A stretch of DNA of 49,325 nucleotides from an uncultured archaeon (GTDB lineage: Archaea > Thermoplasmatota > Penumbrarchaeia > JASLWR01), in NCBI GenBank assembly GCA_964342815.1, contig CAYFHS010000029.1, forward strand, positions 1 through 49,325. The letters run 5' to 3'. Shown piece by piece: positions 20,930-22,579 of the stretch; the stretch's first letter is position 1, and the number at the start of each line of letters is the position of its first letter. The notes below the pieces were generated by a model. The model was given only the letters and a program-made list of their open reading frames with translations. It did no database searches and was not told where the DNA came from. Both the position numbers and the translations under genes were made by a program.

Positions 20930-21003
20930 TGGGCCTGGCCGGATTCGAACCGGCGACCGCCCGGTTATGAGCCGGGTGCTCCACCATGCTAAGCTACAGG
21001 CCC
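20930..21003 (-). tRNA. tRNA-Ile(CAT) (Ile2 type, agmatidine-modified; tRNA-Met not fully excluded)
   Basis: Minus strand gggcctgtagcttagcatggtggagcacccggctCATaaccgggcggtcgccggttcgaatccggccaggccca forms a cloverleaf. The GGGCC acceptor and ggctcataacc arm resemble archaeal Ile2 rather than initiator or elongator Met. Confidence 0.9.
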
Positions 21004-21141
21004 TTTTGTGAACGTAGTGAGCAAATGGGACGTAAAGCCGTGAACCGTTGAGGATTACGGCGCTACAGGCCCAGATATGAGTGAAACGAGTATGTGGGAC
21101 TGTCAGATGTGAACCGGAATGGTTTACATCGCGACAGGCCC
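21004..21141. repeat. Tandem array of two 46-nt hairpin repeats with 23-nt spacers (69-nt period)
   Basis: Copies at 21027-21072 and 21096-21141 are 32/46 identical with compensatory stem changes. Both end in acaggccc, as does the adjacent tRNA end at 21003. Confidence 0.8.
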
Positions 21142-21174
21142 TTTGAATTATACAGATATAAAGGAATAAATATG

Positions 21175-21248
21175 CGCCGCCGACCGGATTCGAACCGGTG
21201 ACCTTGCGGTTAACAGCCGCATGCTTCCACCAACTGAGCTACGGCGGC
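21175..21248 (-). tRNA. tRNA-Asn(GTT)
   Basis: Minus strand gccgccgtagctcagttggtggaagcatgcggctGTTaaccgcaaggtcaccggttcgaatccggtcggcggcg. CCA is not encoded. Confidence 0.96.
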
Positions 21249-21418
21249 ATATATGGGCAATAATTTCAAGGCTGAGGTATGAAACCTCATATATAAAAAA
21301 ATTTGTTCATTTTTAATGATTTAACCGGTGATTTCATGAGAACAAATATCCTGATTAGGAGTTCTGTGAACTAAAAATTATGTCAAAAAGAAAAATATAT
21401 TGAAAACAATGCCGATAA

Positions 21419-22252
21419 TTACTTTTTAACCTGCTTTTTCATGGGCCTTTTCATGGGCTTTTTCATGGGTTTTTTCACGGTCTTTTTGGCCGGTTTCAAA
21501 ACTTTCTTGGCGGGTTTCGAGACGGTTTTTTTTGCTTTCGGGATCCCCTTTTTTCCAGAGGCGGCCTTTTTATCGGATTTCTTCGGCTTTGCTTTAACGG
21601 ATTTCTTGATGCCAGGTTCGGCCTTTTTAATGGGTTTGGCAGGTGAGGGTTTTTTTCCCTTTACTGCCTTAGCGGCAGCCTTCTTGGCTTTAACAGTCTT
21701 TGGCTTTGCCACGGGTTTTACAGATGGTTTCTTAGATGTCGAGGGTTCATTTTTCTCTTTAACCTTTGGTTTCCTTACTTTCACCGGTTTCCGTACAGAC
21801 TTTTTGGGAAGTTTTTTTATGGTTACTTTCCTTGGTTTTTTTGCTTCTTCGGATTCTGCCGGTTCTTCATCCACAAAAATAGGTTCAACCTCGAGAGGCT
21901 CGACTTCCATGGGTTCTGTGACAAGCTCCATCTTTATTGGTTTCATTTCGAGTTTTTTCTCGGCGCTCTTCTTTTCCAAGTCGGCCTGCTTTTTCTTTTG
22001 CATGTTTTCCATAAGTTTCTTTTTCATTATTCCCACAGTGGATTCAAATTTATCCAAGTCCATATCAGGCTTGGCAAGCATCTTTATTGTTGATATCTTG
22101 ACCCCCATTTCAGAATAGGTCATCGCTTCCTCTGGATATAATCTAGCCCAGACAGTCCAGAGCATCTTGTTCTCCGGCCTATTCACCGGTTGTCCGGGTA
22201 GTTTATCCAAGAATTCTTCCAGCTTTGTGATGTCATTCGAATCCACAGCCAT
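21419..22252 (-). CDS. Hypothetical protein with small helical N-domain and long Lys/Ala/Pro-rich histone-H1-like tail
   Basis: Likely start MAVDSND at 22252 (GGTGG SD). Acidic EPME/EPLE linker, then PAKK/KKP repeats ending KKPMKKPMKRPMKKQVKK. Confidence 0.75.
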   Translation of the reverse strand: MAVDSNDITKLEEFLDKLPGQPVNRPENKMLWTVWARLYPEEAMTYSEMGVKISTIKMLAKPDMDLDKFESTVGIMKKKLMENMQKKKQADLEKKSAEKKLEMKPIKMELVTEPMEVEPLEVEPIFVDEEPAESEEAKKPRKVTIKKLPKKSVRKPVKVRKPKVKEKNEPSTSKKPSVKPVAKPKTVKAKKAAAKAVKGKKPSPAKPIKKAEPGIKKSVKAKPKKSDKKAASGKKGIPKAKKTVSKPAKKVLKPAKKTVKKPMKKPMKRPMKKQVKK

Positions 22253-22381
22253 TCTACCACCATACGCTATTCGAAAGGTAACTGACTTTTCATATTTTAA
22301 ACCTATCCCCACTAACCTGCCTTAAATGGAAAAAAATCAGGTCTCATTAATTCAATTTATCTGTTGTATAAAATCAAAAAA

Positions 22382-22505
22382 TGGGCCAAGCCGGATCACG
22401 AACTAAAACTTTTTGTGATTTGGCTGCGCTGGCAAGGGCAGGCCAAAAAGTTTCAGAAAATCCAAAAACCCTGCCCTTACATGCTCGCCAAATAAATAAG
22501 AAGAG
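22382..22505. repeat. Duplicate of tRNA-Val 3' end plus ~110-nt palindromic insert
   Basis: tgggccaagccggat at 22382-22396 is identical to 22506-22520. Inverted repeats: agccggatcac/gtgatttggct, aagggcagg/cctgccctt, aaactttttg/caaaaagttt. Confidence 0.7.
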
Positions 22506-22579
22506 TGGGCCAAGCCGGATTCGAACCGGCGATCACCGCCTTGTAAGGGCGGCATCATAACCACCTAGACCATTGGCCC
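22506..22579 (-). tRNA. tRNA-Val(TAC)
   Basis: Minus strand gggccaatggtctaggtggttatgatgccgccctTACaaggcggtgatcgccggttcgaatccggcttggccca forms a cloverleaf. Confidence 0.96.

Follow-up and report, generated by a model that had tools for sequence, protein, structure and literature searches.

What are two short hairpins doing between two transfer RNA genes of an uncultured archaeon, and where did they come from? The question is raised by a stretch of 49,325 nucleotides (nt), here called the window, which corresponds to contig CAYFHS010000029.1 (C29) of a 4.35-Mb, 116-contig assembly from a member of the Thermoplasmatota (GCA_964342815.1; 89% complete). In the window, tRNA-Asn(GTT) is followed by two hairpins, A and B, and then by a tRNA with a CAT anticodon; the 8-mer GGGCCTGT starts at 21141, 21072 and 21003. 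A preliminary description, made from the letters alone, had noted this exact 69-nt period and had seen the locus as a single array within a tRNA-Asn/tRNA-Ile tandem. The period is indeed exact here, but it is local, since units at other loci measure 69-83 nt. Similarly, the array is real but is not confined to one locus: the two hairpins are members of an undescribed, lineage-specific repeat family, present at multiple loci in a small group of marine Thermoplasmatota archaea.

A repeat family beside one class of tRNA start

The family was searched for by BLAST, by a profile hidden Markov model and by a covariance model (CM; R1, alignment A2, 25 distinct hairpins). The CM gave 19 matches in the window's genome, 12 in a congener, all of them beside tRNAs, and one in another genus of the same family. 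In the window's genome, modules (each a hairpin plus a linker) are found at all 10 tRNAs that start with GGGC-N-Y-GT, namely three Ala, three Pro, Arg(TCT), Arg(CCT), Lys(CTT) and Ile2, and at none of the 33 other tRNAs; every module copy adjoins a tRNA and none lies elsewhere. The module loci at tRNA-Arg(CCT) and tRNA-Ala were confirmed, and a second locus, on contig C24, has three 71-nt units before tRNA-Pro(TGG). The 8-mer GGGCCTGT itself is more widespread, with 69 copies in the genome, and is occupied at tRNA starts only; in the window it occurs six times against 0.99 expected, a count reached by none of 100 shuffles. The preliminary description had made its proposal depend on homologous hairpins in relatives, and these are present, clustered at tRNA loci, in the congener, in the second genus and, in diverged form, in a third. 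In this third genus, partly decayed hairpin-plus-linker units precede five of the eight GGGCCYGT tRNAs; they were recognized by pattern and by eye and were missed by the CM. No fewer than 11 different tRNAs, from two species and another genus, share the same cores.

Beyond these genomes, the CM, run over 37 genomes of the class, matched the window's own family and none of the other 33 genomes; its sensitivity is limited, and this silence does not establish absence because the third genus's diverged copies had escaped it. A pattern scan of the genome collection returned the congener (Thermoplasmatota archaeon ETNP2_MAG_1), three chance bacterial matches and nothing else, and, apart from two chance matches in other sequence, a metagenome scan with a core pattern returned only contigs whose CM scores are those of the congener. 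Viral contigs gave two chance matches only, one of which, on inspection, looks like coding sequence. No account of the family was found in the literature on minihelix or hairpin arrays upstream of archaeal tRNAs, or on insertions at tRNAs of the casposon or miniature inverted-repeat transposable element type. The contigs C11 and C57 overlap, at their starts, within a hairpin array, so the assembly broke on the repeat and copy numbers taken from these draft genomes are lower bounds. In addition, several arrayed tRNAs have introns and were missed or miscalled by ARAGORN (C13:55535-55660; L005 and L042 in G001; L020 in G003); the first of these genes was called Phe and reads as tRNA-Ala(GGC) with an intron.

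The features of the window's own locus are collected in Table 1. Across the window, ARAGORN and Rfam recognize three true tRNAs only, and the module interval contains no tRNA cloverleaf; a scan of 21004-21173 (170 nt) against Rfam gave no match at the gathering score or at E up to 10. ARAGORN labels the CAT tRNA as Met. However, it is identical to the congener's tRNA-Ile(GAT) at 67 of 74 positions and to the genome's other CAT tRNA at only 45 of 74, and for this reason it is likely to be tRNA-Ile2. Both units fold as hairpins, as had been claimed, with -24.4 kcal/mol (z -5.5) for hairpin A and -18.1 kcal/mol (z -2.8) for hairpin B. The reported resemblance between them is also exact: they share 32 of 46 positions without the final A (33 of 47 with it), and their inner stems differ by compensatory pairs. 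The core type of hairpin B recurs at tRNA-Pro, tRNA-Ala and tRNA-Arg loci, and linker B has almost the same sequence as those before tRNA-Pro(TGG) on C24 (19 of 22 positions are identical in the congener). The spacer next to tRNA-Asn is poorly conserved in the congener, where its TATA-like tttatat is not preserved.

Table 1. Features of the tRNA-Asn/tRNA-Ile2 interval in the window, in 5' to 3' order of the minus strand.
Feature	Position	Strand	Basis and remarks
TATA-like element TTTTTTATATAT	21289..21300	-	5' of tRNA-Asn; sequence, identical in the congener's orthologous locus
tRNA-Asn(GTT)	21174..21248	-	ARAGORN; Rfam RF00005, 67.8 bits
Spacer from tRNA-Asn to hairpin A, 32 nt, AT-rich	21142..21173	-	Sequence; contains a local TATA-like tttatat
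Hairpin A, 47 nt including terminal A	21095..21141	-	Class I core, inner stem GAUGU/ACAUC; CM R1, 61.1 bits
Linker A CATACTCGTTTCACTCATATCT, 22 nt	21073..21094	-	Ends self-complementary with flanking CCCA and GGG
Hairpin B	21026..21072	-	Class I core, inner stem GCCGU/ACGGC; CM R1, 48.6 bits
Linker B TTTGCTCACTACGTTCACAAAA, 22 nt	21004..21025	-	Immediate 5' leader of tRNA(CAT)
tRNA(CAT), probably tRNA-Ile2	20930..21003	-	ARAGORN, Rfam; starts with GGGCCTGTAGC, copied at the start of hairpins A and B

Hairpin anatomy and covariation

Each module consists of an imperfect hairpin of 40-57 nt and a linker of 22-38 nt. The first 8-11 bases of the hairpin repeat the start of the adjoining tRNA and its 3' strand is complementary to them; the outer stem matches the acceptor stem of the neighbouring tRNA on both strands. 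This stem is GGGCCUG/CAGGCCC at Ile and Pro loci, GGGCCCG/CGGGCCC at Ala, Pro, Lys and Arg(TCT) loci, GGGCACG/CGUGCCC at the Arg(TCG) loci of two genera, and GGGCGCG with C(A/U)(C/U)GCCC at the Arg(CCT) locus. The boundaries resemble those of a tRNA, as the preliminary description had held, with U at -1 in most units (U/A-1), G at +1, and a terminal CCC-A with U-rich sequence behind it. The CCCA end is found in every hairpin except one, even where the discriminator of the tRNA is G (Arg, Lys).

Two classes of core are distinguished: (i) class I (21 copies), with the form CG-NN-GUAAACC...GGUUCAC-N'N'-CUGAC, in which NN and N'N' are variable but complementary, and (ii) class II (nine copies and a tenth, at tRNA-Lys, with an insertion), with the form CGUUGCACC...GGCGCAAC. 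In the 25-sequence alignment, the variable inner pairs are CG 9, AU 8, UA 6 at one position and UA 10, CG 8, AU 6 at the other, counts that overstate the number of independent events since the copies are related. At least six different complementary dinucleotide combinations occur in the inner stem. The inner helix has 92.8% paired cells, and the whole structure has 84.6%, versus 73% in shuffled alignments and 27-49% when the partners are slid. Selection on structure, which had been proposed from two hairpins, is thereby upheld in 25 distinct copies. The hairpins have about 18-19 stacked pairs, an internal loop and a conserved A.C opposition, and mismatches are frequent at stem positions 4-6.

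Other readings of these elements were tried and rejected. The motif GGUUCAC, previously likened to a T-loop, is a conserved part of the class I core, but it is base-paired in the predicted fold; with GGUUC paired, and with class II cores that have no GGUUC at all, there is no T-loop. A kink-turn or box C/D motif was rejected by eye, since in most core types there is no GA to pair with the conserved CUGA, and so was a bulge-helix-bulge splice motif, as there are no paired 3-nt bulges. Nor is the unit a diverged whole tRNA, because its first 47 nt already contain both acceptor strands.

Most linkers contain an (A)UUCGCUCAY-like motif and some belong to a C-rich class. Their ends pair, as CCCAUUNN...NNAAUGGG, with covarying combinations (AC/GU, GU/AC, UG/CA and AU/AU), and the complementarity of the ends averages 4.25 of 5 positions within a linker versus 3.4 of 5 across a hairpin.

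Turnover of the modules, their predicted place in the transcript and rival explanations

Modules come and go as whole units. When the window is compared with the orthologous locus of the congener, a clean extra 69 nt is seen in the window, made up of linker A and hairpin B. Hairpin A is identical to its orthologue at 41 of 47 positions, the differences including a compensatory replacement of A-U by G-C in the apical stem, and is better conserved than the adjacent spacer. In addition, a relative has an empty site: in a contig of a marine-sediment run, tRNA-Asn leads into tRNA-Ile2 with 139 nt missing (its library is labelled metatranscriptomic, and that the record is RNA is a guess). No RNA run was among those listed for the window's stretch itself, and four runs compared with it yielded contigs only. 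At tRNA-Pro(TGG), the congener has a native ACGTGAT directly at the tRNA and the window's genome has ACGTGAT and then three units, so that direct repeats of ATGGGCCTGT lie on both sides of the insertion. Five orthologous tRNAs differ between the two congeneric species in unit number and in the order of core types, and the tRNA-proximal unit at Arg(TCT) retains an identical 20-nt core. The class I core is 92% identical between genera, and an identical 24-nt core is found at non-orthologous tRNA-Ala genes of the two species. These shared cores at non-orthologous loci, together with the differing arrays, argue that modules move or convert between loci; within a single genome, no identical copies were found at different loci.

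The position of the arrays bears on their fate. In the window's genome, a strong TATA-like 8-mer precedes most non-arrayed tRNAs by about 35-50 nt. By contrast, within 60 nt of the nine directly arrayed tRNAs the only candidate is an AT-rich 8-mer at -19, in the linker of tRNA-Arg(CCT); the other eight tRNAs lack a TATA-like element over that distance. The best TATA-like element 5' of the first unit lies within 50 nt at five of the 10 arrays and 73-88 nt away at four. The arrays thus stand between the only promoter-like element and the tRNA; in the window, the conserved element is the one 5' of tRNA-Asn, which is the probable promoter of the entire tRNA-Asn/hairpins/tRNA-Ile2 unit. Since promoter-like elements occur only upstream of the arrays, these should lie in the pre-tRNA 5' leader and need removal by RNase P. 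Co-transcription with the tRNAs, suggested in the preliminary description, is accordingly what the position of the modules would require, with a TATA-like element only upstream of the array and none adjoining the arrayed tRNAs.

Each hairpin is a plausible t-element on the strength of its tRNA-like ends, given an acceptor-stem-like helix, termini at potential RNase P and tRNase Z sites, and a place between promoter-like element and tRNA. Haloferax t-elements are cut by both enzymes (PMC4326828), and in plant mitochondria simple acceptor-stem-like stem-loops have been proposed as such processing signals (PMC1920247). The modules have mismatches within the helix. Unstable acceptor-like stems that start with GG are tagged with CCACCA by CCA-adding enzymes and then degraded; the frequent mismatches at stem positions 4-6 make such tagging a testable fate for the modules.

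The explanation that we favour, tentatively and with a confidence a little short of even, is a recombining DNA-level repeat that homes to tRNA starts, travels in the leader of the pre-tRNA and is taken out as a t-element would be. The tRNA genes would gain and lose modules, and swap them with one another, as whole units, through recombination at a common junction, (A)TGGGC-N-Y-GT, that consists of the last leader base and the first eight tRNA bases. The outcome would be tandem arrays wedged between the tRNA promoter and the first tRNA base. Modules so placed would be transcribed within the 5' leader of the pre-tRNA and would be cut away, as t-elements are, by RNase P and probably also by tRNase Z; it is proposed that they are tolerated because each carries tRNA-like ends. 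Transcription, processing, the mechanism of recombination and any benefit to the host are the parts of this account that we infer.

Several observations weigh against it. At two loci, tRNA-Pro(GGG) in the window's genome (C11, C57) and tRNA-Pro(TGG) in the congener, an inverted array stands at the 3' end of the tRNA, which is impossible for a 5' leader; these arrays adjoin the last base of tRNA-Pro, where the opposite strand reads TGGGCCTG. A remnant of an inverted unit also follows tRNA-Pro(TGG) in the window's genome. Of 31 hairpins, 27 are more stable when folded from the complementary strand, whereas 25 of 33 tRNAs fold better in the sense strand; a bottom-strand DNA structure agrees with this bias better than a sense RNA does. 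Its source is mostly one conserved A.C opposition that reads as G.U on the other strand: the stem columns hold 33 A.C oppositions versus nine G.U, 17 of the 33 come from that column, and the remainder, 16 versus nine, is not decisive. Moreover, no recombinase or other mobilizing enzyme was identified, the shared junction homology of only 8-10 bp is short for ordinary homologous recombination, and the high conservation of the cores across genera could equally be compatible with a host function. The inverted arrays and the strand asymmetry, along with other repeats at tRNA ends, favour a DNA-level process. The preliminary description had offered a single-stranded DNA hairpin or tRNA-anchored mini-array as its alternative, and this idea remains viable because of the inverted loci, the turnover of whole units and the folding of the complementary strand.

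Were the RNA the reason for the modules, the hairpins or the released 22-31 nt linkers would be host-useful minihelix RNAs, that is, functional small RNAs cut by RNase P and tRNase Z and perhaps CCA-tailed, which could act as decoys, as regulators of tRNA-handling enzymes or as processing helpers for the copied tRNA. This seems doubtful, even though much of the anatomy agrees with it: tRNA-like ends (most units have U at -1, and the final bases are CCC-A), an outer stem fitted to each tRNA on both strands, a core conserved across genera in sequence beyond structure, the compensatory change between the hairpin A orthologues, arrays downstream of the only promoter-like element, and one inverted array with its own TATA-like element at -26 to -35. 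A useful RNA sits less well with arrays whose units differ in number and in the order of types from one congeneric species to the other, with a close relative that has no array at the tRNA-Asn/tRNA-Ile2 locus, or with the decayed look of the third genus's copies. The CCCA end that persists beside a discriminator G, the mismatches at stem positions 4-6, the lower stability of the sense strand in 27 of the 31 hairpins, and the way in which modules track one 5' tRNA sequence irrespective of amino acid point in the same direction. If the DNA itself were the active form, the modules would be a bottom-strand hairpin mobile element, comparable to attC sites, repetitive extragenic palindromic (REP) sequences or the ends of IS200/IS605: a putative recombinase would insert them beside TGGGC-N-Y-G, one hairpin arm would pair with or copy the target, and effects on RNA would be incidental. 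The better folding of the complementary strand in 27 of 31 hairpins, with its A.C excess and the opposite behaviour of the tRNA control, speaks for such an element, as do two G-to-A changes in the congener's tRNA-Arg(TCT) unit that retain pairing on that strand only, inverted arrays that abut the tRNA-Pro end exactly where the other strand reads TGGGCCTG, insertions flanked by 8-10 bp direct repeats of the tRNA start, the presence of all copies at such target sites, and the other end-duplicating repeats carried by further tRNAs of the genome. We nevertheless consider it unlikely, as no candidate enzyme was found, most of the asymmetry stems from a single conserved column, tRNA starts alone are occupied among the 69 occurrences of GGGCCTGT in the genome, and the identical copies at different loci of one genome that recent transposition would be expected to leave were not seen.

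Passive debris, in the form of a decayed local tandem duplication of the tRNA 5' region, of attachment-site (att) scars left by an integrase, or of a CRISPR-like array, is very unlikely. In its favour, every unit opens with a repeat of the tRNA start, duplicated tRNA ends are a known legacy of integrative elements, and a 15-nt duplicate of a tRNA-Val 3' end lies 1.3 kb away. However, the same cores recur at 11 or more tRNAs in two species and another genus, the stems covary, and the hairpin is better conserved than the adjacent spacer; neither an Rfam match, even at E up to 10, nor Cas1 was found. Plain duplication cannot yield modules, because the complementary arm changes with the target tRNA. 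With regard to att-site scars, direct repeats of the tRNA start are present, but the units are uniform, structured, conserved and common to several loci, and no integrase adjoins the array examined. The variable parts are palindromic and of recurring types, unlike CRISPR spacers, and no Cas1 was found in the genome, so the earlier statement that the array is not a CRISPR stands. A bolder proposal, possible but improbable, is that the family is either a miniature mobile element that uses a target-copying or target-pairing DNA hairpin at tRNA ends or a set of natural free minihelix RNAs with a role of their own. A target-copying DNA hairpin would account for the stem match on both strands, for the inverted copies at tRNA-Pro 3' ends and for the better folding of the complementary strand.

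The search for an enzyme covered several families. Neither Cas1/casposase nor a Y1_Tnp match was found in the window's genome (89% complete), and no integron integrase or REP-associated tyrosine transposase (RAYT) was found. The Phage_integrase matches are a Xer-like gene, which all four genomes possess, and a few further genes, and none was seen beside an array; in particular, there is no integrase beside the examined C24 array, including the AT-rich island after tRNA-Pro(TGG). An IS200-like element with a 169-amino-acid Y1 transposase is present in relatives (L071 2441-3203 in G001 and L072 1938-2700 in G003; 82% identity between the two genera). An IS200-like or REP origin was rejected, since the end hairpins of these elements, GCCAG..CCTTTAGG..CTGG, are unlike the module cores. 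A casposon with a 14-15 bp target duplication was rejected as well, because no Cas1 was found and the duplication at modules is 8-11 bp. As for the surroundings of the C24 array, a 443-amino-acid Schlafen AlbA_2 protein (L001, 2935-4266, minus strand) is encoded in an island of 27-35% GC directly after tRNA-Pro(TGG), and a HerA-like ATPase lies on the other side.

Known systems, other tRNA-linked repeats and wider meaning

Among known systems, the family is closest to t-elements and to tRNA-linked repeats, and is set apart by its modular, multi-locus nature, its tRNA-matched stems and the cores shared across loci. Like t-elements, the modules are short imitations of an acceptor end inside a longer transcript, with ends at RNase P and tRNase Z positions (PMC4326828; PMC1920247). 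However, t-elements, which lie upstream of 5S rRNA in Haloferax volcanii and at mRNA ends in plant mitochondria, are single and define the end of another RNA. The modules, whose processing is so far predicted, form tandem arrays before true tRNAs and belong to a multi-copy family with common cores, each member of which copies the acceptor stem of the neighbouring tRNA. The tRNA-linked repeats at tyrT of Escherichia coli contain the 3' end of tRNA-Tyr, lie downstream, measure about 178 bp and occur at few loci. They too are tandem, attached to a tRNA and built of units that reuse a piece of the tRNA end, but they are neither acceptor-stem-matched hairpins nor present at all tRNAs with a given 5' sequence, as the modules are.

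With attC sites, REP-RAYT systems and IS200/IS605 ends, the modules share imperfect palindromes conserved more in structure than in sequence, conserved mismatches, strand asymmetry, tandem arrangement and copy turnover. Unlike attC sites, they have no RYYYAAC/GTTRRRY boxes at the stem ends and no cassettes, and all of them lie at tRNA ends. An integron attC origin was rejected, as module ends read GGGC.YGU/ACR.GCCC and only 22-38 nt separate the hairpins. Finally, synthetic acceptor/T-arm minihelices are minimal substrates of RNase P, of the CCA-adding enzyme and of some aminoacyl-tRNA synthetases (e.g. PMC11392972), and the modules resemble them in starting like the 5' strand of a tRNA and ending like its 3' strand plus discriminator. 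The modules differ in being natural and longer (about 18-19 stacked pairs versus 12), in having an internal loop, a conserved A.C and no T-loop, and in ending with A in all copies but one, whatever the discriminator of the tRNA.

Other repeats are linked to tRNAs in the same genome. On the minus strand of the window at 22382-22579, the last 15 nt of tRNA-Val(TAC), ATCCGGCTTGGCCCA, are repeated 124 nt downstream and followed by a T-run, with inverted repeats between the two copies; this arrangement suggests that a segment was inserted ahead of the native terminator of the tRNA. Further tRNA-linked repeat families are found at C5:73750-74300 (minus strand) and C12:12150-12660 (plus strand): three 150-bp units each open with the first 24 nt of tRNA-Leu(CAG), two 184-bp units are based on the start of tRNA-Leu(AAG), and one of these tRNA-Leu families includes the linker motif ATTCGCTCAT. 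Hairpins are also present 3' of two tRNA-Ala genes (C13:55400-55540 and C14:78290-78460), where they end in the last 12-13 nt of the tRNA, CCCGACGGGTCC (with a final A on C13), and, on C13, are followed by an apparent native trailer. These hairpins have a core of another kind and are the 3'-side equivalents of the 5' modules. In addition, the window contains a 12-nt tandem repeat, GCTTTTTCATGG (21433-21487; 4.6 copies, 86% matches), at the edge of two overlapping open reading frames, 21419-22312 (minus strand) and 21441-22118 (plus strand).

Should the modules be transcribed and processed, roughly a quarter of the tRNA genes of this archaeon (10 of the 44 detected) would be expressed from precursors that carry one to three extra mimics of tRNA ends. 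Such a load on RNase P, tRNase Z and the CCA-adding enzyme is undescribed for any archaeon, and the modules would be natural minihelix substrates for these three enzymes. If they are instead mobile DNA, they would constitute a compact, sequence-programmable system for insertion at tRNA gene boundaries. In either case, tRNA-linked repeats can form an organized, conserved and genome-wide system instead of isolated scars.

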